DNA from: a bacterium
Lineage (GTDB): Bacteria; Patescibacteriota; Minisyncoccia; Phycocordibacterales; UBA5272
DNA length: 35,172 nucleotides
Reading direction: 5' to 3'
Assembly (NCBI GenBank): GCA_043736875.1
Contig: JAYTBU010000028.1
Coordinates: 1-35,172, forward strand
Part shown: positions 9,801 to 35,161 of the stretch, one piece after another
How positions within the stretch are numbered: position 1 is the stretch's first letter
How the letters are laid out: the number at the start of each line of letters is the position of its first letter
Made by a program: the position numbers and the translations under genes
The notes under the pieces: model-generated
The model's input: only the letters and a program-made list of their open reading frames with translations
Told to the model about the DNA's origin: nothing
Databases searched by the model: none

Positions 9801-12800
9801 GTTATAAATGGAAATGAGACAGCAGGAGCCTTGATCGGCTTTGCCGCAAACAGTTCAGGAGTGTGTAATATTAAAAGTATTTTTGCAACATCAACCATAA
9901 ATGTTCCATCTTTTGCAGGAGGTATAGCAGGTAGTATCGAGGGTATGGGGTGTAATATGATAAATGTTCAGTCTCACGGTACGTTAAATGTTAATAGTAG
10001 TGGTCAGAATATAGGAGGATTGGCAGGTCACGCAGTAAATACTCAGATAAATGCATCGTATTCAGATATGGACTTGAATATATCAAGTGGTAGCTCAAAT
10101 ATTGGTGGTCTCGTAGGTCAGTCTCTGGATCAGACACAAATAGGTAACTCTTATTTTGTTGGTGATATCGACATAAGTGCAGGTAATATAAATACTGTCG
10201 GAGGGTTGTTGGGTCTTGCTACTGGTAACGGAGGAAATGTTGGCGACAGTTACGCTATTGTTAATTTTGTGGATGCTACACTTACAAAAGTATACGCTAG
10301 AATAGGAGGCTTGATAGGTAACGTCACAAATGTTAATAGTCCGTTTACGATGAATAATTCTTTTTCAAAAGGAAATATATCACTTGGTAATAATGCTACA
10401 GAGATAGGAGGGTTAATAGGTTTAAGCTCAGGTGCTACAGCTACTTATAGTAATAATATTAGCTATGTAGAGGTAAGAGGAGGTACAAATGTAGGAGGAG
10501 CATTTGGTAAAATAGTTGCCTCTAATCAGGTTCTAAAAAGTAATTTTTCATATGGTAATGTAAGAGGAGGAACAAATGTTGGGGGGTTTGTAGGTGTGGC
10601 TGCTGGACAGGTAAATATTGCTGAGAGTGGGGCATATGGTAATGTGATGGGGGGCAGTGTTGTAGGGGGATTTGTAGGATTAGCGGCTGACGGAGCCCAA
10701 ATAATCCAGTCTTATTCAAGAGGTGACGTATCAGGAGTAAATAGTCTCGGAGGGTTTGTGGGCAGTGTTTCAGATCTTGCATATTTAAGAAGTGTTTACT
10801 CTTGGGGTGATATTCTCTCTTCTGGTACTTTATATATTGGAGGCTTGGTTGGTTACCATAATTCAGCTCAGAACGTAGACTTATCTTATTCTGCTGGATC
10901 AGTGACAGCTCCAAACGCAGAGTACGTTGGTGGGCTAATTGGGTACTTGGGTGGTGCCAGCCTCAGGTATAGTTTTGTCATAAATGAGGGTGGTGTAACA
11001 GGATCTTCTTGTGTGGGCTGGGTGGCAGGAGGAAGTTTTGGATATATAGACAGGGTTACATACAATCAGACAACAGGAAATGCAACAACTAGTGTCGCTT
11101 GTAACAGGGGAGCTGTTGGATCAATCACAGCTGTTGTTAATAATTCTGATTATTTTAAGATAGAGGCAAGTCAAGCCGGTGCATCTGGTGCTGGAAATAT
11201 CACCACTTTAGGTAACACATCTTTTCCAGTATTTACCTGGGAACCAAGAGCAGGATATAGACCGTCTGGTACATACACTACTATGATAGATAGTGATGCG
11301 GGATTTTTATCTTGGAAAAAGCTAGCTATAAATGCTACAGTACCACTAAACACAAGGATAGAATTAGGTATATATGATCCTACTTGCTCTACTTTACTCG
11401 CAGGACCTATAAGTGTACCTGACGGAGGTATGATGTTTGACGCCTTGCCAACTATGAATGCATATACTAGTCTGTGTACGATATATAAATTAACAGGAGA
11501 CGGTAATACCCCTTCTGTTAGCACCCCTAGCTTGGACGCTTGGAAATTCTCTTATAACTCTACTCAGACACCCTCATTCTCTTGGGATGCACAGGTGCAA
11601 AACAGTCGATTGCTTCCAGCTCAGATCAATAACACAGTAAATATACAGACAAATACACCAGAAACTAATTATGATAATAATACCGCTACAGATACATTAT
11701 ATCTAATACAAGCAGATCCAGAGATTAAGAAAATTGTGGACAAAGCAGCTATGGACTTAACAGAAGTAAATGCAGGTGATGAACTAACTTATACTATTAC
11801 TATTAAAAATAATGGCCCAAATGTAGCTATGGGTACATATATTATAGATCAGCTCCCAGCGTATATTAATCTACCACTTGTAAGTGTGGTGGCACAAGTC
11901 TCTACTGGAACACTTGCTTGTACGGTGAATGCTGTGACCAGGATTATATATTGCGATAATGACGGATTGGTAACTAGTTCATCCACTCTCAACATGTCTA
12001 TCACAGACACGGCGACTATTACAGTCAAAGTCAAGGTTAACACTACTGTAAATGCAGGAGATCAATTAGACAATGTCGCAAAAGTATTTAGCTCTACTTT
12101 TGATACTAATACAGATAATAACGAGGACACTGCCAGTACAGTTATAGGAGGCTTTGCTAATCTATACATAGAAAAGACAGGGCCAATAAGGGCAAATGTC
12201 GGTAAAAATTATACTTGGTCTATAAACTTTGGTAATAATGGTAACATTGCAGCTACCAATACTCGTATTATAGATAAGCTTCCAAATGAAGATATAAATA
12301 ATAATGGCATATTAGACCCAGGAGAGGATATTATTGTTAATGGAGCGATAGACAAATACTTTACTTTTGTAAATGGATCAGGTACAGCACCTACAAATAC
12401 ACAGTGCTCTGTACTGTCAGATACTGCGACAGTTACATATGTGATTTGTAACGTAGCGGGCTCGTCAGTAGACACTAGCTGGAATATTGGAGCAGGTGCG
12501 ACAGGGACAATTAATCTAACAGCATTAGTAATTAATAATTACAACTTGTTAAATGGAGGTACCAGCACAAATAGAGTAAGCATAATAACAGATACGCCAG
12601 AGACAAATATCGCAGACAATAATGACGATCATACGGCACCGTTTTGGCCGCTAGGGTACTCTTCTTTATCGGGCTTTGTCTATTATGATACAAACAATAA
12701 TAATATTAAAAATGCTACAGAGACATCAATAGCAAATGTACCAGTATTTCTAGTTGGTAAGGATAGTAGCAGCAGGATAATACTTCCGAGTCCAACATCA

Positions 12801-15515: not shown

Positions 15516-15588
15516 GGGCGGTTAGCTCAGTTGGTAGAGCGCTACATTGACGTTGTAGATGTCAGGGGTTCGAATCCCTTATCGCCCA
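15516..15588 (+). tRNA. tRNA-Val: tRNA-Val (anticodon GAC)
   Basis: Manual cloverleaf fold. Acceptor GGGCGGT/ATCGCCC with one G-U pair; D arm GCTC-AGTTGGTA-GAGC; anticodon stem CTACA/TGTAG with loop TTGACGT (GAC); 5-nt variable loop; T arm AGGGG-TTCGAAT-CCCTT; discriminator A. The 3' CCA is not encoded (next bases are CA A). Confidence 0.9.
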
Positions 15589-15628
15589 CAAATAAAATCC
15601 CAAAAGGAATTTATCTTAGTGATTTAAA

Positions 15629-16027
15629 ATGCAAGATATATATACAGAAAATATTTTGGAGAAAGCGAGAGATAAAAGTTTTGACATAGACAATCAGGAC
15701 ATATTTTATTTTGATCTAGATCAAAATTATAAAAGGGGTATAGGTACCAATCCTAGTTGTGGTGATACAGGCGACGTATATTTTTTATTAGAAAATAATA
15801 TTATAAAAAATATAAAGTTAAACAAAGAGGGTTGTGCCATATCGCAGGCAGGACTAGTTATGTTATCAGAAAAAATAATAGGCAAGAGTATAGTAGAGTT
15901 AAAAAATATAATGCCGAGTGACATATATGATATGCTTCAAATACAAATAAGTCCCTCGCGTGCTGGTTGCGCCCTTTTGTGTTATAATGCTTTAGAGGAT
16001 TTTTTAAAGAAATATGCTACAAATTAA
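15629..16027 (+). CDS. sufU: SufU/IscU-family Fe-S cluster scaffold protein
   Basis: Three conserved Cys lie in family-typical contexts: NPSCGD, EGCAISQAG and SRAGCALLCYNALE. These resemble SufU NPTCGD / GCSISMAS / RIKCATL. The length is 132 aa. Confidence 0.8.
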   Translation: MQDIYTENILEKARDKSFDIDNQDIFYFDLDQNYKRGIGTNPSCGDTGDVYFLLENNIIKNIKLNKEGCAISQAGLVMLSEKIIGKSIVELKNIMPSDIYDMLQIQISPSRAGCALLCYNALEDFLKKYATN

Positions 16028-16712
16028 AGACCTAAAAATAAACACAAAAGATGGGAAAGAGATTATAGAAAAAGCTAATCTAGTTTTAAGTGCTGGACAA
16101 ATAGTAAAGCTGACAGGTGAAAATGGTAGTGGTAAAACTAGTTTTTTAAATGCTATTTTTAAGCATTTTGATTATGACATAGTCTCTGGAGATGTTTTGC
16201 TTAGTGGTGGCGGCGACGAAGTCGCCGCCAAAAGCATTTTAAGTTCGCAGACTTTTGAAATGGTTAGAAGTGGTATGTATTTAGGGCAGCAATTTGTGCC
16301 AGAAATACAAGGAGTGAGTAATATCAAATTTTTATACAAAGCTTTTCAGAATATTTACCCAGAAGATAAAAAAAATATTATAGATTTTAAAAATGAACTT
16401 GAAAAATACTGCGATGATTTTGAAATAGATAAAACTTTATTAAGTAGAGATATTAACTTTGGATTTTCAGGAGGTCAGAAAAAGATTTTTGAAATGCTAC
16501 ATATACTTGCATTAAAACCAAAATACATATTTTTAGACGAGATAGATAGTGGCGTCGATGAGTTTTCTAAAATCAAAATCTATAACATTATAAATCATAT
16601 ACAGAGAACTGGAGCAGCATTTTTGATAACTTCACATGATACAAATATAAAAGACTATATAGATTTTGATGCAGAATATATTATAGAAAATAAAATCTTA
16701 AAAGCATGTTAA
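16014..16712 (+). CDS. sufC: SufC-like ABC ATPase for Fe-S cluster assembly
   Basis: Walker A GENGSGKTS; signature plus Walker B NFGFSGGQKKIFEMLHILALKPKYIFLDEIDSGVD, as in the SufC GFSGGEKKR...LDExDSGLD pattern; H-loop ITSHD. It overlaps sufU by 14 nt. Confidence 0.8.
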   Translation: MLQIKDLKINTKDGKEIIEKANLVLSAGQIVKLTGENGSGKTSFLNAIFKHFDYDIVSGDVLLSGGGDEVAAKSILSSQTFEMVRSGMYLGQQFVPEIQGVSNIKFLYKAFQNIYPEDKKNIIDFKNELEKYCDDFEIDKTLLSRDINFGFSGGQKKIFEMLHILALKPKYIFLDEIDSGVDEFSKIKIYNIINHIQRTGAAFLITSHDTNIKDYIDFDAEYIIENKILKAC

Positions 16713-17029
16713 CAGAAGACAAAATATTAGAAAGCCTAAAAAGTATTATAGATCCAGAGTTAAACATAGACATAGTTAGGCTCGGGCTAATACGCGATAT
16801 TAAAATAGGGGAATACTTTGCTGAGATAAAAAGTTATGAATATATAAAAATAATAATCACACTAACAACACCGATGTGCCCATTTGCAGATATTATAATT
16901 AGTGACATAAAAGATAATATAACAGAGCTTTGTTTTGTTGCTGGTGTAAAAAGTGAAATAGAGGTAGATGTGACTTTTGATCCGCCATGGACATGCCCAG
17001 AGGATATTAGGCTAGAAATGGGGGTTTAG
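16706..17029 (+). CDS. DUF59 / SufT-like Fe-S assembly protein
   Basis: IIDPELNIDIVRLGLI ... TLTTPMCP ... DPPW are the hallmark motifs of the DUF59 (MIP18/SufT) family. ATGTTAA overlap with the sufC stop. Confidence 0.75.
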   Translation: MLTEDKILESLKSIIDPELNIDIVRLGLIRDIKIGEYFAEIKSYEYIKIIITLTTPMCPFADIIISDIKDNITELCFVAGVKSEIEVDVTFDPPWTCPEDIRLEMGV

Positions 17030-21590: not shown

Positions 21591-22994
21591 ATGATTGATA
21601 TGTCTAATATAGAAGTAAATAAAAAAATATCTAAAAATGTAGCGATAATTTTAGCTGCTGGGATTAGCTCTAGACTAAAAGGGTCTAAACCTAAGCAGTT
21701 CTTGAGGTTGGGAGGTAAAACTTTAATAGAGCACACTTTGCGAGCATTTGATATCAATAAAGATACATATGAAATTATTCTCGTTATTAACGAAGAATAT
21801 TTAGAAGAGGCAAACTCTCATGTTTTAAACAGTTGTATAAATAAAAAAGTTCACATAGTTTATGGGGGGAATAACAGAAGAGAGTCCTCATTTAAAGCGC
21901 TGTCTTTCTGTAAAAAATTTTATTCAACAGAGAAAGTAAATGTTTTAATTCATGACGCTGCAAGACCTCTCTTGTCACAACAAATAATAAATAATGTCGT
22001 AAAAGCTCTCACTATCTACGAAGCTGTAGATGTTGCCATAGATCCTGTTGATACCCTAATTCAAGTAAATAAAGAAAGTGGGTTAATCGACAGGATTCCA
22101 AGCAGGAGTGATTTTATGAACGGACAGACACCTCAAGGATTTGACCTGAATCTAATATATGAAGCACATGAGAAGTCTCTTCTTTGCGCAAACTTTGAAG
22201 TTTCTGACGATTGTGGTATTTTAAAAAAAATGTTTCCAGAAGTTAAAATATATGTTGTTTATGGCTCCAATAAAAATATGAAAGTTACTTACAAAGAAGA
22301 CCTTTATATATTAGATAAATATTTACAAATTAATGAAGCTTATTCGGAGTCTTTTCAAGATTTTTCCCACCTAAGAGACAAAACAATTGTGGTTTTTGGG
22401 GGAAATAGTGGCATAGGTGAAGAAATATGTAGCCAGGTAAAAAAATACACTAGGAATGTTTTTGCTTTAAGTAGGAGAAATGGTTGTGATGTTCGAAACA
22501 AGGAAAACGTACAACAGAAACTTGCTGATATTTTTAAAGAGACAGGTTCCATAGATCATGTTATAGTAACTGCCGCCGTACTTAATAAAAACAAAATAAC
22601 AGATCTGGTAAATGATGATAAGGATAATCATTTTAGTGTAAATTTTACTGGGAGTGTAAATGTTTCAAGTGCTGCATATGAATACATTATAAAAAGCAAA
22701 GGCTCCATATTTCTATTTGCCTCCAGCTCTTACTCTTTGGGTAGAGGCGGCTATAGTATGTATGGCGCCAGCAAAGCTGCTTTAGTTAATTTTGTTCAGG
22801 CTGCTTCAGAAGAGTGGAATGGGAAAGTTATTATAAATTGTATCAATCCAGAAAGAGTAAAGACTCCAATGAGATTAGATTCTTTTGGCTCGGAGAAGGG
22901 TGTAGACATGTTGCTGCCGTCAGAGGTAGCATATTACACGCTCGGCTTACTGTCTACAGATTTGTCAGGTATGGTTTTCAGTATAAAAAAATAA
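21591..22994 (+). CDS. Bifunctional CDP-ribitol synthase-like protein (Bcs1/TarI-TarJ type): IspD/TarI cytidylyltransferase fused to a short-chain dehydrogenase/reductase
   Basis: N-terminal half: VAIILAAGISSRLKGSKPKQFLRLGGKTLIEHTL and IHDAARPL, which are IspD/TarI motifs. C-terminal half: VVFGGNSGIGEEI (TGxxxGxG-like), S...YGASKAAL (catalytic YxxxK) and INPERVKTPM. The order and size (467 aa) match the Haemophilus Bcs1-type fusion. Confidence 0.75.
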   Translation: MIDMSNIEVNKKISKNVAIILAAGISSRLKGSKPKQFLRLGGKTLIEHTLRAFDINKDTYEIILVINEEYLEEANSHVLNSCINKKVHIVYGGNNRRESSFKALSFCKKFYSTEKVNVLIHDAARPLLSQQIINNVVKALTIYEAVDVAIDPVDTLIQVNKESGLIDRIPSRSDFMNGQTPQGFDLNLIYEAHEKSLLCANFEVSDDCGILKKMFPEVKIYVVYGSNKNMKVTYKEDLYILDKYLQINEAYSESFQDFSHLRDKTIVVFGGNSGIGEEICSQVKKYTRNVFALSRRNGCDVRNKENVQQKLADIFKETGSIDHVIVTAAVLNKNKITDLVNDDKDNHFSVNFTGSVNVSSAAYEYIIKSKGSIFLFASSSYSLGRGGYSMYGASKAALVNFVQAASEEWNGKVIINCINPERVKTPMRLDSFGSEKGVDMLLPSEVAYYTLGLLSTDLSGMVFSIKK

Positions 22995-22998
22995 TTAA

Positions 22999-25023
22999 AT
23001 GAAAAAAGATATAGCTTTTATAATTTACTACCCATTTCAATTTTATGTATATAAAAACATATATAAACATTTATTGGACAGGTCCATTTTCATAATAGAT
23101 TTGTACAACTTTTCTGAACATGATGACATAAATACATTTGGCAGCATTAGAGACTTGCTAGAGAAAAATAATATAGAATATAGAATCATCAAAAAAGAAG
23201 AGTATCAAATTAAAACAAAAATTCAAGAAGTATTTTTTGGTATAGATCTAGCTGTGTCTGTCTGGGAGCAGGGATGTGTAACATTACTTGATAACATTGA
23301 TGGTTTGACTCATATAAAAAAAGTTGGCTTAAGTTATGGTGTTGGTAAGCAGCTAACTATGGTAAGGCCAAGCAGGGCAATTTATGACTTGATACTACCA
23401 TATGGAAAAAGTGAGGAGAAATACTACTCTCTTTTTGCGAAAACCATACCGATAGGAAACCCAAAGTTTGACGATTTTTATGAAAATAATTTAGACCACT
23501 CTCTTGTAGAAAATCTAAAATTAAATAAAAATAAAAAGACTGTACTCTATTTGCCGACGCACAGTAATCTGGGGTCATTTAAACAGGTCATGCCAGAGCT
23601 TATAAAGTTAAAAGATAAGTATAATATACTAATAAAAATACACTACTTTATAGAAAGAGAAGAGTCTGAGTTTATTTCTACTCTCAAACTTTCCGGAGTG
23701 CACTTTTTAAAAGATGATACAGATCTGTTGCCTCTTCTTAAGGTTTGTGACATGGCTATAAGCGATAATTCTAGTGTTATATTTGATGTAATGCAGGCTG
23801 ACAAACCTCTGCTCTTAGAAGATATTTGGAACGAAGAGTTTTTTGAAAAAGATATACATAAATTAGATGAGGTAAAAAGAGGTATAGTAGCACCACTCAC
23901 ATACCCAGATTCTATAGAGCAGAGGATAAAAAGGGAGGGTAAAGTAGCTTTAAATAAAAATGTTAAAAATCTTAACAAAGATATTGAATATGCGATCAGC
24001 AATGACAGTTTTTACTCCTTGTACAGAAAAGATATTCTGTTTGAAACTATTGAGTATACAGATGGTGATTGTGGAAAGAGGGGGGCAGATGCTATCCTCG
24101 GACTCCTGTCTGGAGACATAGAGCCAAGAAAAGGTATAATGTATTATAGAGACATAAGAGAAAAATCTCTTTATCAAATAGGCCAGATGAGCAGCATCAG
24201 CAAAGTTGTCTCTGGAGAAGTTTTTGACGTAAACAGTATACAGTATGTTATTTTTTGTGAAAATATAAAGGACTCTAATACTAGTTTAGATGCTATTATT
24301 GATATGGGTGCAGAGAGAGATAGTGTAACGTTAGTTTCTAACGTAGAAAAAGAAGATTTTAGGACCGTGAAGTATTTAGATATTAAAAGTTTTATGCAAA
24401 ACAAAAAAGTTTTATTCTTAAAGTCTGGAGTTGTTGTGAGTAAAGATGACTTGTCAAAGATTTTTACCAGAGTAAACATAGAAGATACTACATGCATATC
24501 TTTATCAACTAAAAGAAAATATTCAAGCCTGGAAGATATTTTTATAAATCTAAAACTACCTTTCCTTAAAAGCTTAAAAAATAAAAATGCTTATTTTACA
24601 ACAGATTTATTTTGTAATTTTTATGGTTTTGTGCCATCAGAGTATAATGCTGTTTTGCTCGGAGAGACTCTTGTTTCTGAACTCTTCAAGCGAAATGATA
24701 CTATAAAAATTTATGATAGTATTATTTTTTTCTTAAACACTAGATCTGATAAAATAAAAATTTTGATGCTTAATATTTTCACAGACCTTAACTTTGTAAA
24801 AGATTCTCCAGAGCTACTTTCAGAAAAAAGTGTACAATTTTCTTTTTTACAAAAATACTCCAGCATGCAATTTTTAAAAGACTTACTGTCAGACGGTGAA
24901 AATAAAAAGTATCATAAAATGATGAGCAGGTTGAAAATATTTTTACTTGTGTTTCTGTATAGATTTTTATTATATCTAAATCGCCACAAAAACAAATTAG
25001 AGAGAAAAATTAATCAGTTGTAA
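22999..25023 (+). CDS. TagF/TarL-like CDP-alditol phosphotransferase (Glyphos_transf family), with an unrecognised C-terminal extension of about 270 aa and a terminal hydrophobic helix
   Basis: KKTVLYLPTHS (compare YAPTxR), LIKIHYF, and LLKVCDMAISDNSSVIFDVMQADKPLL (compare D-LITDYSSxxFDF..L.KP). It starts 4 nt after the upstream gene. The C-terminus is LKIFLLVFLYRFLLYLN. Confidence 0.6.
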   Translation: MKKDIAFIIYYPFQFYVYKNIYKHLLDRSIFIIDLYNFSEHDDINTFGSIRDLLEKNNIEYRIIKKEEYQIKTKIQEVFFGIDLAVSVWEQGCVTLLDNIDGLTHIKKVGLSYGVGKQLTMVRPSRAIYDLILPYGKSEEKYYSLFAKTIPIGNPKFDDFYENNLDHSLVENLKLNKNKKTVLYLPTHSNLGSFKQVMPELIKLKDKYNILIKIHYFIEREESEFISTLKLSGVHFLKDDTDLLPLLKVCDMAISDNSSVIFDVMQADKPLLLEDIWNEEFFEKDIHKLDEVKRGIVAPLTYPDSIEQRIKREGKVALNKNVKNLNKDIEYAISNDSFYSLYRKDILFETIEYTDGDCGKRGADAILGLLSGDIEPRKGIMYYRDIREKSLYQIGQMSSISKVVSGEVFDVNSIQYVIFCENIKDSNTSLDAIIDMGAERDSVTLVSNVEKEDFRTVKYLDIKSFMQNKKVLFLKSGVVVSKDDLSKIFTRVNIEDTTCISLSTKRKYSSLEDIFINLKLPFLKSLKNKNAYFTTDLFCNFYGFVPSEYNAVLLGETLVSELFKRNDTIKIYDSIIFFLNTRSDKIKILMLNIFTDLNFVKDSPELLSEKSVQFSFLQKYSSMQFLKDLLSDGENKKYHKMMSRLKIFLLVFLYRFLLYLNRHKNKLERKINQL

Positions 25024-25057
25024 ATGTGTCAAAATCTTTTCAGGGTTTAATTTTTTG

Positions 25058-25066
25058 TGTTATAAT
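25058..25066 (+). promoter_or_regulatory. Extended -10 promoter (TGTTATAAT) upstream of the helical-ORF/YcaO gene pair
   Basis: Exact 9-mer in a 31-nt intergenic gap. In-frame ATGs lie at 25067 (abutting the -10, so unlikely to be transcribed) and 25076 (9-nt spacer). Confidence 0.6.
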
Positions 25067-25075
25067 ATGTTCATT

Positions 25076-25957
25076 ATGTATAATAAAAATATAGACATTA
25101 AGAAAGAAGTTTTGAAAAATATAGATGTATTATACTCGCAGATAGATTTTCAAAATTCTAAAATAAATATACATATTAATTATGAAAAAGGAGAAGACTA
25201 TCCTAGAATGGCTTTTGTTTTATTTTCGCTGAGCAGGGCCTACAAAAATAAGTTCCTAGATCAAGACAAGAAACAAGAGCTTTTGAAATTATTTTTTAGA
25301 ATATATGAACAAGTAAAACTTTCTGAAGATAAATCCCCTTTTTTGTTTGTCATGTTATATGGCATGAGAATGTTTAAAAATCTTGATGAGGATTATAATT
25401 TTATTATAGAAGATTTTAAAGAGCAAAATTATAGTCCCATATACAACAATACTATTATGGCGTCTATTTTTATGTCATGTTTTACAGAGTGTGATAAATT
25501 GAGAACAGGCTTTGATTACTCCCAAGAGATTTTTCTACAATGTAAAAAAATCTTTGACTACATTATTTTTTCCAACAAGTCAGAAGATTATGAAGCTTTT
25601 TATTTTTCTGAGTTGTCTACATTAGAAAAATCTTTGCCGTCTTACACATTAAAAGCAACTTACAAGTTGATAGAAGAAAAATTTTCAACAGGATACTTAC
25701 AGAGAAATGTCTCAGCTACAGGTGTAGCTAAATGTATGGAAGACTTTGCAAGGAGGGGGGAGTCACAGCTATTTAATAAGTGTATAAAGTTTTTAGAACA
25801 GAGAAAGTTAAGTAGATTTTCAGAGTATCTGAGACCTGATCAAGAGGTTTTTAAGGATAATCTTTTCACAGAAAATAATGATTCGCAATATATTTGCCTC
25901 GATACAAATGTTCACTTATTAAATACTTATTTAAATATTTATGAAAAAAACAATTAA
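25076..25957 (+). CDS. Hypothetical, predicted all-helical cytoplasmic protein, translationally coupled to the YcaO gene
   Basis: ORF in the track starts at TTG 25055. I prefer the ATG at 25076, downstream of the -10 box. No signal peptide or TM segment and no motif I recognise (no LanC, SagB nitroreductase or E1-like signatures seen). Its last 17 nt overlap the YcaO start. Confidence 0.6.
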   Translation: MYNKNIDIKKEVLKNIDVLYSQIDFQNSKINIHINYEKGEDYPRMAFVLFSLSRAYKNKFLDQDKKQELLKLFFRIYEQVKLSEDKSPFLFVMLYGMRMFKNLDEDYNFIIEDFKEQNYSPIYNNTIMASIFMSCFTECDKLRTGFDYSQEIFLQCKKIFDYIIFSNKSEDYEAFYFSELSTLEKSLPSYTLKATYKLIEEKFSTGYLQRNVSATGVAKCMEDFARRGESQLFNKCIKFLEQRKLSRFSEYLRPDQEVFKDNLFTENNDSQYICLDTNVHLLNTYLNIYEKNN

Positions 25958-27329
25958 ATTACTTTATGAAATAAGGCAAAATAGGGGGGCAAAGTTTATG
26001 TTCATGCCAAAAACTTTAAGTTTTTTTGAGATATGTAAATGTATATATTTTGAATATGTAAACATATGGAAAAGTGATGAGATTATTATAGTAAAATTTT
26101 TAAAAGAGCTTTTTCGAAAAGGTTTAATATTGGAAAAATCCTTAAGTTATAGTACTTATAATTTAGATAATTTTACTTATAATGATGTTAACATAACCAC
26201 TTCAGATAACAAAACTTTTTCAAGAGGAACCTCAATAGATAAGTCAGAAGCCTATGCAAAAGCTGTCGGAGAGGTGTTGGAGCGCACTTCTGTCAGGTAT
26301 AACAAGGATAAAGTTTTAATTGAGTCTCAGAAAAGTATGAGTGAAAAAAAATTAGATTTTATCTCTATTTCTGATTTTTCTCAGCCAACTCAGAAACAGT
26401 TAGAAAAGTACCTACATTTTAATATTGATAATAGTGATATATTTTCTTGGACAAAAGTCTTAAACATAAAAGATAATAAAGATTATTATGCCCCGTCACA
26501 GACAGTTTTTTATGGCAATGCCATATCTTATCCAAATGAGAAACATATAATACATCCAACCACTCATGGTGCAGGAGCTGGTTACACAGAGTACGATGCC
26601 GATAGGTCATGTATATGCGAGGTTATACATAGGCATTTTTATTTGAAAAACTGGTATGCAGGCAAGAGTGTAAACATTATAGACATAGACTCTATACCAA
26701 AAGATAAAAAGATATACAGTCTTATACAGGACTTGAAAAATAGAGATTTTAAAGTTAATCTACTTGATTATAGCGATCAGGCTGGCTTGCCGACTGTAAT
26801 GTGTGTTATAGAAAAAGAGGGTGGGTGGTCATGCGGAGGTACAACAGGAGTTAATATCGACAGCGTAATACAGAGAGCCATTAGCGAGTCGATGGCTGCA
26901 TATTTGTGGTACGCAAAAAATATAGCAGAAGAGGGTTGTAAAATATCGCATGTAGACATATCAAAAGTTGAAGATGGATTTGTGGACGATGTGTACGGAG
27001 AAACTAATAACAAGATCGCGATTTATAATCAAAAATATTTTATAGATAAAAATAAAAATAGTTTAGATTTCCTGCTGTCGGGCAAGGTAATACCTTACGA
27101 CAATAAATATAATAAAAACTTTAATTATGATATTAAAAAACATGCCATAGATATTTTTGGTGATGTTTATTTTTATAAAGTAGAAAATAATTATCTGCCT
27201 GATTTTAATTATTTTGTTAAAAAAGTTATAGTGCCAAATAGTTATTCATTTCCGATGGAGGAGAAATATAGTAGACCTACCCTAAATGGTGATTATCCAC
27301 AGGTAACAATTTTGAACCCTTTTGTATAA
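25941..27329 (+). CDS. YcaO-domain protein (SagD/TOMM cyclodehydratase-like)
   Basis: FSRGTSIDKSEAYAKAVGEVLERTS matches the GKG-x-AxxSAxxEAxER(Y)S ATP-site motif. HGAGAGYTEYDADRSCICEVIHRH aligns by eye to the NGxAxG...ExxERD region, with the second acidic residue replaced by His. DYSDQAGLPTVMCVI and GGTTGVNIDSVIQRAISESMAAY match the later YcaO blocks. The C-terminus ends ...ILNPFV. The first ~90 aa (…KFLKELFRKGLILE) could be an RRE-like winged-helix domain. Confidence 0.75.
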   Translation: MKKTIKLLYEIRQNRGAKFMFMPKTLSFFEICKCIYFEYVNIWKSDEIIIVKFLKELFRKGLILEKSLSYSTYNLDNFTYNDVNITTSDNKTFSRGTSIDKSEAYAKAVGEVLERTSVRYNKDKVLIESQKSMSEKKLDFISISDFSQPTQKQLEKYLHFNIDNSDIFSWTKVLNIKDNKDYYAPSQTVFYGNAISYPNEKHIIHPTTHGAGAGYTEYDADRSCICEVIHRHFYLKNWYAGKSVNIIDIDSIPKDKKIYSLIQDLKNRDFKVNLLDYSDQAGLPTVMCVIEKEGGWSCGGTTGVNIDSVIQRAISESMAAYLWYAKNIAEEGCKISHVDISKVEDGFVDDVYGETNNKIAIYNQKYFIDKNKNSLDFLLSGKVIPYDNKYNKNFNYDIKKHAIDIFGDVYFYKVENNYLPDFNYFVKKVIVPNSYSFPMEEKYSRPTLNGDYPQVTILNPFV

Positions 27330-27338
27330 CATTTTTAA

Positions 27339-27347
27339 TGTTATAAT
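27339..27347 (+). promoter_or_regulatory. Extended -10 promoter (TGTTATAAT), 6 nt before the ATG at 27354 (leaderless)
   Basis: Exact 9-mer in the 24-nt gap after the YcaO stop, followed by spacer taattt and then ATG. Confidence 0.65.
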
Positions 27348-27353
27348 TAATTT

Positions 27354-27557
27354 ATGAAAAATAAGAATATAAAGTTATTATTACTATCTTCTCCGCTTAT
27401 TATACTAGGGTTTTTTATAAATCTATTTAGTTTTAACACCGGTACCGAGGGTGCTGTCATAGAAAAAGCGTATGCAGATATAGCTACTCAGACAATTGAT
27501 GGTAGTAATTGTGCTGGCGGTGGTTCTTGTGAGGGTGCTTGTGGGTGTTGCAGCTAA
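27354..27557 (+). CDS. 67-aa Cys/Gly/Ser-tailed peptide: candidate RiPP precursor with a signal-peptide-like N-terminus
   Basis: MKNKNIKLLLLSSPLIILGFFINLFSFNTGTEGAVIEKAYADIATQTIDGSNCAGGGSCEGACGCCS. It has 5 Cys and 3 Ser in the last 17 residues, its own promoter and a tandem TAATAA stop. The core-coding DNA (27501..27554) is about 55% G+C by my count, within a very AT-rich locus. Confidence 0.65.
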   Translation: MKNKNIKLLLLSSPLIILGFFINLFSFNTGTEGAVIEKAYADIATQTIDGSNCAGGGSCEGACGCCS

Positions 27558-27568
27558 TAAATAAAAAT

Positions 27569-28600
27569 ATGAATAAAATAAAAATAATTACAACTATAGC
27601 TATATTAATACTGATCATACTTATCGGACTGATATTACTGAAACAGTCTAAAAATAGCAATATAGTTGTTAATAATAGCAGCTACACAAAGTACCCAAAT
27701 ACTATAGCTGAGCTAAAAAAAGATGAAAAGACGAGAATTTTAATTGATAGACTTTCCTCAGCTAACTCACTAGAAGTATTTAATTCTTTTAATGACTTAT
27801 CTAAAACTGAGTCGGATCAAAATAAAAAAGAGAGTCTCCAATTATTTGCAGGAGCCTCTTTGCTTGCTTTAGACAAAACTGCAGGGTCTGAGTATTTTAT
27901 GTCTATTGCTAACAATACACAAAATTCTAACTTGACCAAAGCTTATGCTATGATTAAAATATATCAAGAGTCTTTGGCCTATGCTAAACCAGAAATGTTA
28001 AAAGTCTTTTTTACTGACTATGAAAAAGATACAAAAGGCATGTCTGGCAGTGACATAAAATTAGTTATAAACAAAAAGATATTAGATGTTTATCCATTTG
28101 GATTAGCTGCAGCCAGAGCAGGAAGGCTGGAATTAGCCAAAGGCCCAACCTCAGAAAATGCAAAAGTTTTATACGCAAAGTATATGCCAATAATTGATAA
28201 TAATATAGATGAATTTTCAAAAACTGAGGGACAGAGACACTTTGTAAAAAACACATATCTTAACGCTGCAAAATTTTTGGCAGATCTTGAGGTTTATGGT
28301 GCGTCTAATGTTGTAGAGGTTCGTGCTTATTTTGACAAAGGTTATAATGAAGCACTCTCTCAAAAAGATGTGATGACAAAACATTTTATAATGATGGCTT
28401 ATGCTGATTACTTACTCTCTAAAAATCTAAACACAGACGCTGAAATAGTGCTATCTCAATTGGTTTTGCAAGATACCAGTAAAACGATTGCGCCAAGCTT
28501 ATCAGTTACAAAAGGTAAGGATTATCTCAGTGTGTTAAAATATATAAAGAGCAACAATACAGAACTTTCTACAAAGATAAAGAGTCTATTAAATAGGTAA
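27569..28600 (+). CDS. N-terminally membrane-anchored helical hypothetical protein
   Basis: The ATG at 27569 gives MNKIKIITTIAILILIILIGLILLKQ. The track's TTG start at 27539 overlaps the peptide ORF. The rest is helical and repeat-like with no recognisable motif. It lies 11 nt after the peptide stop. Confidence 0.65.
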   Translation: MNKIKIITTIAILILIILIGLILLKQSKNSNIVVNNSSYTKYPNTIAELKKDEKTRILIDRLSSANSLEVFNSFNDLSKTESDQNKKESLQLFAGASLLALDKTAGSEYFMSIANNTQNSNLTKAYAMIKIYQESLAYAKPEMLKVFFTDYEKDTKGMSGSDIKLVINKKILDVYPFGLAAARAGRLELAKGPTSENAKVLYAKYMPIIDNNIDEFSKTEGQRHFVKNTYLNAAKFLADLEVYGASNVVEVRAYFDKGYNEALSQKDVMTKHFIMMAYADYLLSKNLNTDAEIVLSQLVLQDTSKTIAPSLSVTKGKDYLSVLKYIKSNNTELSTKIKSLLNR

Positions 28601-28604
28601 TTAT

Positions 28605-29147
28605 ATGCAAAATAAAAATTGGAATATCTACATAGGTATATTAGCTTTCTTTTTGGGTTTGTTATTGGCTTTATCTTTTAGATTTTTAAAATATTCAGAA
28701 TATATAAATCCAAAAATAGTAGATATAGACCCAGTTATAGCTTATGAGAACATAAAATCTAATCCATCTAAATATATATTTATAGATGTTAGGTCAGAAT
28801 TTGAATATAACAATGCTCACGCTTCTTCTTCTATTAATCTGCCGATACACTATCTCTACGATGATACTCATGGTATTAAAAATGAAAAAGGTATACCAGT
28901 ACCCAAAAATACAGAGCAAGAAATATATCTAATATGTACAGGAGGGCGCCTTGCTGGGGTTGCTTATGGATATTTGGAGCACTATGGGTACAGGAATATA
29001 AAAAGAATAGAAGGAGGTATCAAAAACTGGGATACAAAAAATATGCCAGTTATAACAAAAAGCTTGTTTAATGATTACAAAGAAAAAAGTTTTGATATAG
29101 AGGTAAAATCAGCACCGCTAGACAAAGACTATGTTGAATCAAGATAA
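28605..29147 (+). CDS. Membrane-anchored rhodanese-domain sulfurtransferase
   Basis: N-terminal helix IYIGILAFFLGLLLALSF. Rhodanese signature FIDVRSEFEYNNAHASSSINLP. Active-site loop LICTGGRLAG with Cys codon at 28935..28937, followed by IEGGIKNW. Only a 4-nt gap from the upstream gene. Confidence 0.8.
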   Translation: MQNKNWNIYIGILAFFLGLLLALSFRFLKYSEYINPKIVDIDPVIAYENIKSNPSKYIFIDVRSEFEYNNAHASSSINLPIHYLYDDTHGIKNEKGIPVPKNTEQEIYLICTGGRLAGVAYGYLEHYGYRNIKRIEGGIKNWDTKNMPVITKSLFNDYKEKSFDIEVKSAPLDKDYVESR

Positions 29148-29832
29148 CATTTTAGTTTTTATAAAAAAGAATTTATTTTTAATACTGATTTCATTCTGTA
29201 TTCTTATTTTTTTTACTTATACAATAAAAACTAAGCTAGAAACTGGTAAGCAAGTAGAAAAAAGTTCTCTAGACATGTCGGGAGAATTATATAAAAAAGT
29301 AGATGATTCAGATCATTTTAAACTTAGAAATGCAACTGCAACCATAGATATTGTTAATTATTTTAGTTTGGACTGTCCATATTGTAGAAGATCTTATGTT
29401 TTAGAAGATTGGCTTTTGTTAAAAGAGAAGTATACAAATATTAATATTGTATACAGGCACAATCCATTACTATCTCAACCCTTATCAGCAGAGAAAGCTA
29501 TTATAACAGAATGTGTATACGGGCAGTCTGGAGATATGGGTATGTTTGGTTTTCTTGATCATGTTTTTTCTGATTTTGATATTGTAAATAAAAACAATGA
29601 TTGGATTAAAAAAGTTGCTAATTTTTACATAAGTTCAGAATCAGATTTTGAAAAATGTATGAGCGATGAAAGTGTAAAAAATAAAATCCAGAAACAAAAA
29701 AATGAGAATAACATATCTGGCATAACTTATACCCCAACTATTCTAATTTTTAAGGACGGGATTTTTATAAAAAAATATGAAGAAATAAGCGAAGAAAAGC
29801 TCATTAATATAATTAAATTATATGGTAAATAA
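29131..29832 (+). CDS. Membrane-anchored DsbA-like thioredoxin-fold thiol:disulfide oxidoreductase
   Basis: N-terminal helix LFLILISFCILIFFTYTI. CPYC active site (29374..29385) in the context NYFSLDCPYCRR. A TYTPT segment sits near the C-terminus where the DsbA cis-Pro loop is expected. It overlaps the rhodanese gene by 17 nt. Confidence 0.75.
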   Translation: MLNQDNILVFIKKNLFLILISFCILIFFTYTIKTKLETGKQVEKSSLDMSGELYKKVDDSDHFKLRNATATIDIVNYFSLDCPYCRRSYVLEDWLLLKEKYTNINIVYRHNPLLSQPLSAEKAIITECVYGQSGDMGMFGFLDHVFSDFDIVNKNNDWIKKVANFYISSESDFEKCMSDESVKNKIQKQKNENNISGITYTPTILIFKDGIFIKKYEEISEEKLINIIKLYGK

Positions 29833-30589
29833 ATATTTTCTAAAACTTAAAACCCAAAACCTAAAAAAGTATTTATGTTTTATTTTATTTATGTTTTTTT
29901 TGTCAGTATCTTTTTACTTTAGGCAAAATATTTATTTTTATACTGGAAATCAATTTTTTGGCGGCAAGATTGGTTATGCTAGCTATCACATATCACTTTA
30001 TAACATAGAAGTATCAGAATATTTTTTGCTAAAAGCTAATGATTTTGATAAAAAAATCATATGGAATAATTATCAGCTATCTAGAATTTATTTTATAAAA
30101 GGTGATTTGTATAAAGCTGTGCAGTATAGCAACAGAGAATTGGAATACTTTCCAGACAATTGTCGCACTCATTATATACGAGGGCTAGCTTATGGATATA
30201 AAAATGATTTAGATAATGCGATATCTGATTTCGAAAAGTTCAATACCTGTTTCCCTCTTAGCTGGGCAGGGCACAATGATTTGGCTTGGTTCTGGTTCAG
30301 AAAGGGTGATATGCAAAAAGTTGTCGATGTGGTAGAGGGGGTAATTACTAGTTATGATGACAACCCATGGATACAAAATACTTATGGTACAGCACTTATG
30401 AATCTTGGTCGGGGCAGCGAGGCATTGCTAGCTTTTGAAAAAGCAAAAGTGGCAAGTGAGAGCATGACAGAAACAGACTGGGGCAAAGCTTATCCAGGCA
30501 ATGATCCGTCTATATATGGAAAAGGGTTAAAAGCAATGCGAGAGACCATAGATAAAAATATCCAATTATTAAAAGAGGGAGATCTCTAA
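29822..30589 (+). CDS. Membrane-anchored TPR-repeat protein
   Basis: N-terminal helix YLCFILFMFFLSVSFYF. TPR-like units: YQLSRIYFIKGDLYKAVQYSNRELEYFPDN, HYIRGLAYGYKNDLDNAISDFEKF, LAWFWFRKGDMQKVVDVVEGV, YGTALMNLGRGSEALLAFEKA. It overlaps the DsbA-like gene by 11 nt. Confidence 0.7.
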   Translation: MVNKYFLKLKTQNLKKYLCFILFMFFLSVSFYFRQNIYFYTGNQFFGGKIGYASYHISLYNIEVSEYFLLKANDFDKKIIWNNYQLSRIYFIKGDLYKAVQYSNRELEYFPDNCRTHYIRGLAYGYKNDLDNAISDFEKFNTCFPLSWAGHNDLAWFWFRKGDMQKVVDVVEGVITSYDDNPWIQNTYGTALMNLGRGSEALLAFEKAKVASESMTETDWGKAYPGNDPSIYGKGLKAMRETIDKNIQLLKEGDL

Positions 30590-30665
30590 GGTTTTCCTTG
30601 CTTGTTTTTTATTTATTCTTATCCACATAAACAATTTTTAGTATTTACTATTTTTGGTATATATT

Positions 30666-30674
30666 TGTTATAAT
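30666..30674 (+). promoter_or_regulatory. Extended -10 promoter (TGTTATAAT), 6 nt before the ATG at 30681 (leaderless)
   Basis: Exact 9-mer followed by spacer atattt and then ATG. Confidence 0.65.
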
Positions 30675-30680
30675 ATATTT

Positions 30681-31319
30681 ATGAAACATAAAAATAAAAA
30701 TCTAATAAAATCTTCCTTTTCAGTTTTGCTTATATCTGCCTTATTTGGCTTTCTGTTTGTCTTTAATGTTACTCAAAAAGAAGTACCAGAGGCAGAGCTT
30801 CGCTTTGCTGAGCACAGCGATAACAAAAATATAAAGGGCTCAATGTTGCCAGCCAGTTGTGAATCACGCCCAAGGATTGGTACAGCTCATTTTGCAGGTG
30901 ACAGTAGCGGCTCTTGTGCCTGTGCTGTGACTGGACAGACTTGTAATGGTAATTATATATATAACCATAAAGCTGGTTGTGGTATCGGTTTTAATGTTGC
31001 TTATTGTACACATGGTTGCACTAATAATGGTGGCACACCAAATAGTTTTGGTCCTAGATGTAACGATGCTCCTGTGGCTGGTGGACCTAACTGTCCTGCT
31101 ACTACTGTATCGTGGGCTCCTGGTTGTAGTGCATATGTTGGTCCTTCAAATACTGGCGATGTTGTCAACGTAACTAACTCAGCAGCTGGTTACACAGGTA
31201 ATAACTCAGTCAGCTGTAACGGCAGCTCGGTCCAGGTTGACGGAGCTACATTTTCTGGGATACAACCATCATGCAAGGCTATACTTCCTCCGCCTCAAGT
31301 TCAGATTAATTTTAATTAG
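30681..31319 (+). CDS. Secreted or anchored Cys-rich (12 Cys) Gly/Asn/Thr-rich hypothetical protein
   Basis: The ATG at 30681 gives MKHKNKNLIKSSFSVLLISALFGFLFVFNVTQ. The track's start at 30654 lies inside the promoter. The mature part has 12 Cys (…SSGSCACAVTGQTCNGNY…GCGIGFNVAYCTHGCTNNGG…). The coding DNA is visibly more GC-rich than its neighbours. The stop codon is TAG. Confidence 0.7.
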   Translation: MKHKNKNLIKSSFSVLLISALFGFLFVFNVTQKEVPEAELRFAEHSDNKNIKGSMLPASCESRPRIGTAHFAGDSSGSCACAVTGQTCNGNYIYNHKAGCGIGFNVAYCTHGCTNNGGTPNSFGPRCNDAPVAGGPNCPATTVSWAPGCSAYVGPSNTGDVVNVTNSAAGYTGNNSVSCNGSSVQVDGATFSGIQPSCKAILPPPQVQINFN

Positions 31320-34020: not shown

Positions 34021-34428
34021 ATGAAAAAAGATTCTGATATTAAAAATTTTGAAGATTGGTTAAAAATAAAAGAGAAGACTGAAAATAGGGTTAGGGTAGA
34101 AGCTTATAAATATTCTGTTTTTTGGTGTGCATATGGTGAAAATATAGGGTCAGAAGTTTGTGGTAAAGGTGATAATTTCCTGAGGCCAGTTATAATTTTA
34201 AAAAAATTTGGAGACAGATGTGTTTTGGTCGCACCACTGACATCTAAAAATAATGAAGATAAAAATAATATAAATATTAAAATAGATACAGAAGAAAAAG
34301 AAAAGTGTGTACTAGTCAGTCAGATAAGAGTTGTGGACACAAAGAGGTTGTTTGATTATGTGGGTAAAGTGTCAAAGGAGAGTAGATTAAATCTAAAAGA
34401 GTCTTTTAATAAAATAATCAAAATATAA
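34021..34428 (+). CDS. PemK/MazF-family toxin-like protein with no adjacent antitoxin ORF
   Basis: VFWCAYGENIGSEVCGKGDNFLRPVIILKKFGDRCVLVAPLTSK ... CVLVSQIRVVDTKRL matches the PemK/MazF pattern (G-E..G..RPvlIl...v.v.PlTs...QIR.iD..RL). It starts 8 nt after the proS stop and has no Shine-Dalgarno sequence. Confidence 0.7.
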   Translation: MKKDSDIKNFEDWLKIKEKTENRVRVEAYKYSVFWCAYGENIGSEVCGKGDNFLRPVIILKKFGDRCVLVAPLTSKNNEDKNNINIKIDTEEKEKCVLVSQIRVVDTKRLFDYVGKVSKESRLNLKESFNKIIKI

Positions 34429-34555: not shown

Positions 34556-35161
34556 ATGCAAAACCTCTTAAATCCAGATACAATTATATACATAGCTATA
34601 GTTATATATAGCATCATATTACATGAGATAGCTCATGGTTATGTTGCTTATCTCTGCGGTGACAATACTGCCAAAAATGCAAATAGGTTAACCCTTAACC
34701 CTGTGCCGCACATAGACCCAGTGGGCAGTGTATTGTTGCCGGTTATCGCTGTTATGTCTGGTTTTGGTGTGTTCGGCTGGGCCAAGGGTGTGCCAGTTAA
34801 TTTGTACAATCTAGGTAGCAAATTAAAACAGTTCATGGTGGCGTCAGCAGGTATAGTCACTAATTTACTTATTGCTAGTGTATTTTTATTCTTAGTAAAA
34901 TTTGGAATATTCCAGAACTATCAAGGTCTATTTTTAAAAGTAGCTATAGTTAATATTGGTCTTGGTTTTTTTAATCTTTTACCTATACCACCTTTTGACG
35001 GCATGAGCATGCTACGTAGTATATTTCCACAGTTAGGTCACAAGTATGAGCACCTGGAACACAATCCAGCTGCGATGATAATATCTATATTATTAGCTTC
35101 ACAATTATTTGGATTAATATATCCTAGTATTACAAAGTTTGTATTTGAGGTATTTTTTTAA
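34556..35161 (+). CDS. Site-2 protease family (peptidase M50) membrane metalloprotease
   Basis: HEIAHG (HExxH) lies in the first TM segment. The second signature is FNLLPIPPFDG (NxxPxxxxDG). Multi-pass hydrophobic protein of 201 aa. Confidence 0.85.
   Translation: MQNLLNPDTIIYIAIVIYSIILHEIAHGYVAYLCGDNTAKNANRLTLNPVPHIDPVGSVLLPVIAVMSGFGVFGWAKGVPVNLYNLGSKLKQFMVASAGIVTNLLIASVFLFLVKFGIFQNYQGLFLKVAIVNIGLGFFNLLPIPPFDGMSMLRSIFPQLGHKYEHLEHNPAAMIISILLASQLFGLIYPSITKFVFEVFF

Follow-up and report, generated by a model that had tools for sequence, protein, structure and literature searches.

In the microcin B17 system the YcaO protein McbD requires the E1-like McbB and the FMN dehydrogenase McbC; the leader of the precursor, McbA, is non-secretory and is removed by TldD/E, and export is by the ABC transporter McbEF. 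A cysteine flanked by glycine or cysteine is the favoured context for cyclodehydration in the microcin B17 and streptolysin S classes, and a proline-rich C-terminus, the PxPxP motif, is a hallmark of the azoline-forming cyclodehydratases of thiazole/oxazole-modified microcins (TOMM) or linear azol(in)e-containing peptides (LAP). The motif is said to have been defined by Dunbar et al. in 2014. For the candidate phyla radiation (CPR), a bioinformatic report described LAP clusters, made of YcaO, nitroreductase and precursor, in 93 genomes (Sharrar et al. 2020, mBio, PMC7298704): the nitroreductase adjoins YcaO in 89 of 110 clusters, and the example shown there has a peptidase (PMC7298704). The locus described here lies on contig JAYTBU010000028.1 (assembly GCA_043736875.1), from a bacterium of the lineage Patescibacteriota, Minisyncoccia, Phycocordibacterales, UBA5272; the whole stretch analyzed, 35,172 nucleotides long, is referred to as the window. 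It features a divergent YcaO gene, followed by a short open reading frame (ORF) with a Gly/Cys/Ser-rich tail. The preferred reading, to which a probability of roughly 60% is assigned, is that of a YcaO-dependent, linear azol(in)e-type locus for a peptide made by the ribosome and modified after translation (RiPP), in a variant known to date from Patescibacteria alone and organized in two transcription units.

Within the window, every ORF of at least 100 aa was searched against Pfam; for the interval 22999-31319, with its nine ORFs, NCBIfam was searched as well. The initial annotation had recognized a YcaO enzyme in the 462-aa ORF at 25941..27329 (+), from the hallmark blocks KSEAYAKAVGEVLERTS, HGAGAGYT, GLPTVMCVI and VIQRAISESMAAY. 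All four blocks are located in the ORF, and the assignment is borne out by a match to PF02624 (109.6 bits, cutoff 25.7; E=2.5e-31; residues 96-399) and by the AlphaFold model (pLDDT 90.6), whose fold matches include MusD, MJ1094, Mk-YcaO, LynD, TruD, E. coli YcaO and McbD, with E from 1e-10 to 3.5e-15. The top NCBIfam match is to the SagD-type rather than to the thioamide-type model (98 vs 38 bits). The enzyme has few homologues: 17, at 35-45% identity, were retrieved from 5.8 billion clustered proteins; by sequence comparison, these enzymes, marked as type A, are a small divergent clade. Eighteen distinct loci with a type A YcaO, the window's own included, were compared, and relatives are indicated by L-numbers where they need to be told apart. 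All named genomes carrying the enzyme belong to Patescibacteria (Paceibacteria, Minisyncoccia, Adlerbacteria and one labelled Saccharibacteria), and a metagenome scan added just two further short loci.

The first acidic ATP/Mg motif (S/A-x3-E-x2-E-R) is present as AKAVGEVLER, with E111, E114 and R115 invariant in 17 of 17 clade members; the clade form, AKAxGExxER, is invariant along with E227, E316 and Arg residues. The second acidic motif reads E-[IV]-x-[NH]-R-H throughout the clade (17 of 17) and E-V-I-H-R-H in the window, in place of E-x-x-E-R-D. The replacement had been noticed by eye in the initial annotation: HMMER does align EVIHRH to the ELVERD, EIVERD or EIIERD of TruD, LynD, MusD and MJ1094, and the change holds family-wide. 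The changed positions in the window protein are H209, H230 and H232. A C-terminus ending in NPFV, also reported before, is correct for the window protein and is not a trait of the clade: the window alone has NPFV, the other members end in ...YPQNTxINPFP, which resembles the PxPxP of azoline-forming YcaOs and is close to the canonical PHPFP found in long paralogues (type B, see below). Of the five acidic positions that bind ATP/Mg, four are invariant, as are the Arg residues and the C-terminal tail, which argues for type A being still a working enzyme. Residues 1-90 are modelled as three helices and a long beta-hairpin, a domain that looks winged-helix-like.

The gap between YcaO and the peptide gene is 24 nt long (27330-27353) and contains a copy of the 9-mer TGTTATAAT at 27339..27347 (+), 6 nt before the ATG of a 67-aa ORF at 27354..27557 (+), which ends in SNCAGGGSCEGACGCCS. 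Position, upstream element and Gly/Cys/Ser-rich tail are thus as initially described. Within the window, this is the sole ORF of 25-150 aa with at least two Cys and at least four Gly in its last 22 residues. Conservation of the pairing, which had been proposed as a check, is found in 16 of the 18 loci, where a small ORF of the same family directly follows a YcaO, across enzymes only 35-45% identical. Considering also second copies and peptides linked to type B enzymes, homologous peptides are at least 20. A chance or mis-annotated ORF, next to a YcaO with a housekeeping role of its own, as in E. coli, might be suspected, the ORF being short and of low complexity, and its orthologue in L020 having been missed by the gene caller. 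Yet seventeen further homologous ORFs share one three-part architecture and the same motifs despite very different nucleotide composition, no other such ORF exists in the window, and the clade is far from E. coli YcaO (PDB profile match E=2.6e-4 over 29 residues). To judge from this conservation, the suggestion is essentially refuted and retains hardly any probability.

The peptides follow a common plan: a Lys/Arg-rich start, a hydrophobic helix often containing P-x4-G, a spacer, a junction and a tail. In the window, the leader or signal-like part (residues 1-41, 27354..27476, +) includes the basic start MKNKNIK, a 19-20-residue hydrophobic stretch with P-x4-G, and VIEKAYA, followed by Asp; the resemblance to a Sec signal noted in the initial annotation is real, with the AYA|D site 14 residues past the helix, a long c-region for signal peptidase I. 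The junction is of the type [AV]-x-[AG], with Asp or Glu as the next residue, and commonly reads [FLV][FI][EQ][KR]-A-[YHK]-A|D in the orthologues. Sites like EKAYA|D are also seen in other secreted proteins of the window (IKFAEA|S, ATA|E, GFA|Q). The leader motif near the cut site appears more conserved than signal peptidase alone demands, which fits recognition by a biosynthetic protein. The predicted core peptide (27477..27557, +, stop codon included) is 26 aa long, DIATQTIDGSNCAGGGSCEGACGCCS. Across the family, tails are 25-53 residues long and composed mostly of Gly, Glu and Ser/Gln, with one to five Cys in every core, mostly after Gly or Cys. In the sub-clade of the window, tails end in C-[EQ]-G-[AS]-x-C-C, a motif seen again in L003, L016, L020, L022 and L023; examples are CEGACGCCS, CEGAGCCGSI, CEGAGCCSG, CEGAGGCCGSG, CQGAGGCCG and CCEGSCCSS. 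None of the peptides matches a curated precursor family of NCBIfam.

Several relatives carry a second YcaO paralogue, type B, about 20% identical to type A, which keeps the canonical E-x-x-E-R-D. In L011, L012, L013 and L018, a long type B YcaO is paired with a dehydrogenase of the SagB family, which has the nitroreductase fold (TIGR03605, 119-136 bits, cutoff 78.4), and a peptide of the same family comes after the pair. L013 contains the type B pair, the peptide and a TPR gene only, while L012 and L018 feature both cassettes, with one peptide copy each. The presence of this peptide family next to a canonical YcaO and SagB supports, independently of the window, its being an azol(in)e-type RiPP precursor, in line with the profile searches, with the conserved adjacency and with what had been proposed for the locus. 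Of the two options in the initial wording, "azol(in)e or thioamide", azoline formation is favoured and a thioamide is less supported, given a TIGR03266 (McrA-thioamidation YcaO) score of 38.5 bits, below the cutoff of 365, and no TfuA domain.

The long paralogues (480-518 aa) end in PHPFP or PHPFI and are those paired with the SagB-family dehydrogenase; they are located at 11709-13154 in L011, 13379-14935 in L012, 9602-11152 in L013 and 1244-2686 in L018. Short paralogues, of about 400 aa and ending in PHLLC or PHLLP, are found beside the type A pair, at 9415-10608 in L002, 13109-14347 in L008, 3524-4690 in L010 and 11089-12291 in L017. The short YcaO and the pair formed by rhodanese and thioredoxin, described below, never occur together in the sample (4 loci with the short type, about 10 with the pair); this mutual exclusion may reflect function or phylogeny alone.

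The gene inventory of the initial annotation had correctly placed the sequence features it listed, missing the 293-aa partner gene at 25076-25957 and the operon at 27569-30589; the locus is more than a lone YcaO, having an obligate upstream partner and a conserved downstream module with rhodanese and DsbA-like protein. The partner, labelled U296 (25076..25957, +), is predicted to be a cytoplasmic, all-helical (alpha/alpha)-toroid protein; its stop and the YcaO start overlap by 17 nt, and an extended -10 promoter-like element, again TGTTATAAT, is located at 25058..25066 (+), 9 nt before its ATG. Shuffled sequence would be expected to contain 1.7 copies of the 9-mer; the window contains 11, at 334, 15980, 17109, 21576, 25058, 27339, 30666, 31383, 32709 and 34541 (+) and at 29500 (-), ten of the eleven copies being on the coding strand. 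Five copies (21576, 27339, 30666, 31383, 34541) are exactly 6 nt 5' of an ATG, a placement which suggests that mRNAs leaderless, or with leaders of 0-3 nt, are a common expression mode of this genome. Since a copy precedes both the partner gene and the peptide gene, two units are suggested, partner plus YcaO and peptide through TPR gene, the latter forming a unit of its own, probably transcribed without a leader. The split agrees with the organization of L009, where the genes for peptide, U343, rhodanese and thioredoxin are together, apart from the partner-YcaO pair. The segment containing YcaO, peptide and rhodanese (25001-30000) also has the lowest G+C content of the window, 29.4%, compared to 33-40% elsewhere.

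Genes of the second unit are separated by 4-11 nt or overlap, and the operon, whole or mostly, is also found in L003-L007, L009, L016 and L018-L023. The peptide gene is followed by U343 (27569..28600, +), with an N-terminal membrane anchor, a helical domain of about 300 aa and no Cys: it has no match in Pfam, NCBIfam or PDB, is unrelated to the neighbouring TPR protein, and a word-indexed homologue search found one relative. U343 follows the peptide gene in most loci where the downstream flank is present, and follows both peptide copies in L012. Next comes a membrane-anchored, single-domain rhodanese (28605..29147, +; PF00581, E=8.5e-13, 49.1 bits, cutoff 22.2), whose gene exceeds all others of the set in conservation (65-68% identity), with the active-site loop CTGGRLAG; the single Cys of C[TSN]GG[RS]LAG is kept in 7 of 7 orthologues, and the protein is predicted to face outward in most of them by the positive-inside rule. 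A membrane-anchored DsbA-like thioredoxin (Thioredoxin_4; 29131..29832, +; PF13462, E=8.9e-13, 49.2 bits, cutoff 23.2) carries CPYC, the CxxC being also kept in 7 of 7 orthologues. The last gene (29822..30589, +) encodes a protein with TPR matches and an N-terminal hydrophobic segment; homologues are found near the cluster in L003, L006, L011, L012, L013, L016, L018 and L021. A terminator-like hairpin (30575..30599, +) closes the operon. All products of the peptide operon feature an N-terminal hydrophobic segment, although that of the TPR protein was spotted by eye, its hydropathy being too low for the threshold of the scan; YcaO and the partner gave no such segment in the same scan.

Beyond the hairpin, at 30681-31319 (+), a secreted Cys-rich protein of 212 aa, with 12 Cys and its own TGTTATAAT-N6-ATG element, shows a conserved N-terminal motif, ELRF[AS]E.S...GS.[LI]PASC, and no Pfam or NCBIfam match. 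Relatives are found beside the TPR gene of the cluster in L003 (4441-4998, -), L006 (6274-6834, -) and L016 (3153-3659, -), and the protein may have a part in the system of the cluster, perhaps being a substrate of DsbA. Kinship between its N-terminus and the peptide leader (38% over 63 aa) was considered and judged to reflect signal-peptide composition, as it does not recur in L003.

Wherever a locus includes the upstream flank, the partner gene is directly upstream of YcaO, in most cases with an overlap at the YcaO start. The model of the protein (pLDDT 93.6) has only weak fold matches in the PDB, to GH76, C3d and GH105 toroids (E=2e-3, TM 0.64) and to AprG, all at E of 2e-3 or higher, and none in a viral structure library. 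No Pfam match at E<=10 was obtained for 10 members of the family, nor for the distant members from an exhaustive search; NCBIfam and PDB sequence searches were also negative. The family is rare: an exhaustive profile search found 42 clusters among 1.84 billion representative proteins. The partner belongs neither with the E1-like proteins nor with recognition elements of PqqD type, and is best described as a previously undescribed helical protein, translationally coupled to YcaO. Its invariant residues are C220 (in AKCMEDFARRG), C236 and the block C274-L-D276-T-N-x-H280. Thiol-activating toroid enzymes, such as LanC and the beta subunits of prenyltransferases, have Zn sites of which these residues are reminiscent. 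Neither profile nor fold places the partner among LanC-like or prenyltransferase-like proteins, and the Cys, Asp and His are invariant by sequence. A CaaX-like prenylation, involving the partner and a C-terminal Cys of the peptide, was ruled out, because the position of the Cys relative to the C-terminus is variable and no prenyltransferase fold match was found.

These residues bear on an alternative which keeps the pairing of enzyme and peptide and changes the chemistry: the product could be a thioamide, or an amidine or macrocycle formed through a distant nucleophile, or could result from ATP-dependent peptide cleavage, with C-[EQ]-G-A-x-C-C functional in itself, for example metal- or redox-active. 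Three active-site positions of the YcaO are His or Asn clade-wide, and the partner, with its invariant Cys, Asp and His, occupies in the type A cassette the position held by the SagB dehydrogenase in the paralogous type B cassettes. By both sequence and fold, the enzyme is best matched by MusD, a YcaO that acts as an ATP-dependent peptidase, and the operon encodes a sulfur carrier, the rhodanese, of high conservation (65-68% identity). On the other side, TfuA is missing, the score of the thioamidation model is far from its cutoff, and LanC and farnesyltransferase are absent from the top 50 fold matches of the partner, whose putative Zn site is suggested by sequence. The rhodanese, being membrane-anchored and facing outward in most predictions, would be badly placed to supply sulfur to a YcaO in the cytoplasm, and such a role in thioamidation is disfavoured. 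On balance a different chemistry is considered unlikely.

The lack of the usual accessory genes, reported in the initial annotation, was confirmed by the Pfam and NCBIfam scans: E1-like, Ocin-ThiF, TfuA and SagB/nitroreductase domains are all absent from the window's ORFs of at least 100 aa, and no ABC exporter, C39 or other dedicated protease gene is found near the locus. The sole ABC and protease matches of the window are far away, an ABC ATPase among Fe-S assembly genes (16014-16712) and a Peptidase_M50 fragment (34556-35161). The models for an azole-type SagB (TIGR03605, PF00881) are not matched in the window, and are passed only beside type B YcaOs in the relatives.

A number of observations weigh against the azol(in)e-type reading. 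The TIGR03604 (SagD family) score is 98.4 bits, with a cutoff of 219.25, and the match stops at model position 239 of 377, having begun at 1. The second acidic ATP/Mg motif (E-x-x-[N/H]-R-H) is without its Asp and one Glu, and an invariant His replaces the Asn of the conserved (S/T)NG in the type A clade; because of these two alterations, activity or chemistry may differ from those of canonical cyclodehydratases. Neither an E1-like or Ocin-ThiF partner nor a recognizable PqqD-type RiPP recognition element (RRE) is found at the locus, and the toroid fold of the actual partner is not known to have been linked to YcaO chemistry. The AxA site is 13-35 residues past the helix in some relatives (about 35 in L012), which is long for signal peptidase I. 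Topology of rhodanese and thioredoxin is derived from the positive-inside rule alone, which gives an ambiguous answer for the two proteins of the window itself; since SecDF and DsbB genes adjoin them in some loci, the two could be general envelope housekeeping genes. Finally, the peptide gene has its own promoter-like element; in L009, on the same contig as L001, the peptide is encoded 8 kb upstream of YcaO, beside U343, rhodanese and thioredoxin; and in one of the 18 loci, L002, no peptide was found near the YcaO pair.

The last three points, together with the damaged Mg-binding motif and with a leader resembling an ordinary signal peptide of this organism, may be read as indicating that the peptide is not a YcaO substrate at all. 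It would be a Sec-exported, Cys/Gly-rich peptide, for example one active at the envelope in thiol redox or metal binding, and would be handled solely by the extracytoplasmic module of U343, rhodanese, DsbA-like and TPR proteins; YcaO would have another target, or be dead, and the adjacency would be inherited synteny. Such an account appears rather improbable: the adjacency persists between YcaOs of 35-45% identity with differing flanking genes, and across deep divergence the peptide adjoins three different YcaO types. In L011, L012 and L013 the peptide family is found beside canonical YcaO and SagB pairs with neither rhodanese nor thioredoxin, while in the two-cassette loci, L012 and L018, each cassette has its own peptide. 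The invariance of the ligand positions (four of the five acidic ones), of the Arg residues and of the C-terminal tail also points to a working enzyme rather than to a dead one.

Under the preferred, azol(in)e-type reading, what is observed, namely the identities and folds of the gene products, the altered motifs, the layout of the operons and the conservation of their co-occurrence, may be arranged in the following pathway. The first unit (25076-27329) would provide two cytoplasmic proteins, the divergent YcaO and its translationally coupled toroid partner, and the second (27354-30589) the 67-aa precursor and four membrane-anchored proteins. The precursor would be completed before it engages the translocon and is exported. 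Modification is expected in the cytoplasm, because YcaO enzymes need ATP: there YcaO would activate, with ATP, backbone amides next to the Gly-flanked Cys of SNCAGGGSCEGACGCCS, thiazolines being the most likely outcome. Azolines rather than azoles are expected, because no dehydrogenase is present. The leader (...EKAYAD) would probably be recognized by the winged-helix-like N-terminal domain of YcaO, by the partner, or by both. The signal-like N-terminus would then direct export by the general Sec pathway, and cleavage behind AYA, for which signal peptidase I is the likeliest enzyme, would release an acidic Gly/Cys peptide of about 26 residues. Outside, rhodanese and the DsbA-like oxidoreductase might act on the remaining thiols, by disulfide or persulfide chemistry, with U343 and the TPR protein as possible helper or immunity factors.

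A bolder proposal, regarded as doubtful, joins the two unusual cytoplasmic proteins in a new two-component enzyme, where the His-rich YcaO and a Cys/Asp/His site of the toroid, possibly binding Zn, would catalyze a reaction other than azoline formation on C-[EQ]-G-A-x-C-C. Maturation would be split across the membrane, with Sec export, a signal peptidase cut, and finishing outside by the rhodanese and the DsbA-like protein, through persulfide or disulfide chemistry. If this were true, both the use of a Sec signal as a leader and an extracytoplasmic sulfur transfer would be new for bacterial RiPPs.

In several lineages, the gene directly upstream of the partner encodes a protein (about 405-414 aa) that spans the membrane several times, has a soluble C-terminal part with Cys and matches nothing in Pfam (L003 5896-7113; L006 7741-8961; L016 4968-6212; L020 3873-5111; L022 550-1764; L011 15845-17260, -). 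It is missing from the window, where its position is taken by genes of teichoic-acid type: a fused cytidylyltransferase (IspD/TarI-like) and short-chain dehydrogenase (SDR, TarJ-like) at 21591-22994 (+), and a 674-aa protein of the CDP-glycerol:poly(glycerophosphate) glycerophosphotransferase family at 22999-25023 (+). Genes of such a teichoic-acid-like polyol-phosphate pathway share synteny with the YcaO locus in L009 (5785-7946) as they do in the window. About 40% of the window is occupied by two large predicted surface proteins, of 1089 aa (8-3277, +) and 3855 aa (3858-15425, +), made up of repeats of the SdrD B-like, DUF11, prealbumin-like and CarboxypepD_reg kinds. The single tRNA-Val (15516-15589) has immediately behind it a compact Fe-S assembly set (15629-17029, +), composed of a NifU-like scaffold, an ABC ATPase and FeS_assembly_P. 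A toxin gene of MazF/PemK type is found a few kb from the cluster in the window (34021-34428, +) and in L016 (1759-2154, -); related loci are often flanked, too, by genes for Fic, NYN, ParE and Phd/YefM.

A seven-gene cassette, kept across many lineages of tiny-genome, almost entirely uncultured Patescibacteria, likely matters for living with, or against, other cells. RiPP enzymology would gain a compact YcaO clade with an altered ATP/Mg site, an unusual partner fold and a leader resembling a secretion signal. If the peptide is modified, the range of substrate recognition by YcaO enzymes is wider, and a first chemical handle is obtained on a natural product of this radiation; if it is not, the clade becomes a documented case of a YcaO with changed function.

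Compared to microcin B17, the locus shares the fold match of its YcaO to McbD and a Gly-rich core with Gly-Cys and Gly-Ser sites; some cores, such as GCGQGGSEGCSQGCGGQGI in L011, look similar to that of McbA. Unlike that system, it has no counterpart of McbB, McbC, TldD/E or McbEF, and cores in this family are also Glu-rich. With streptolysin S (SagBCD) and TOMM clusters in general it has in common the SagD family as the best-scoring one for YcaO, a C-terminus that in the clade, though not in the window protein, resembles the x-P-F-P type, and a Cys-rich precursor core, while the TIGR03604 score is below its cutoff, the window has no SagC or SagB gene and the second acidic motif is altered. 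The bottromycin YcaOs and the thioamide-forming archaeal MJ1094 or Mk-YcaO, with or without TfuA, work without an E1-like or Ocin-ThiF partner, and MJ1094 is a strong fold match; they keep, however, ExxERD (EIIERD in MJ1094), whereas type A has a partner of its own, always present, and the window lacks TfuA. MusD and the cyanobactin heterocyclases TruD, LynD and PatD are the closest solved structures by profile and fold, and yet are fusions of about 780 aa, joining an E1-like/RRE part to YcaO, at about 16% identity, where the window enzyme has an N-terminal extension of about 90 residues.

The CPR LAP clusters come from the same radiation and have YcaO beside a precursor of about 70-100 aa with a Cys/Ser core (PMC7298704). 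Relatives L011, L012, L013 and L018 show exactly their combination of YcaO and nitroreductase/SagB, next to the same peptide family found in the window. The window itself differs in having neither nitroreductase nor peptidase, and the type A YcaO, the toroid partner and the module with rhodanese and DsbA-like protein are not described in that report (PMC7298704). The locus is not placed in the SagBCD or McbBCD families, because the SagD threshold is not reached, ExxERD is altered, and the partner and dehydrogenase of those families are missing. By its predicted function, it most resembles LAP/TOMM systems: microcin B17, streptolysin S and the LAP clusters of the CPR.

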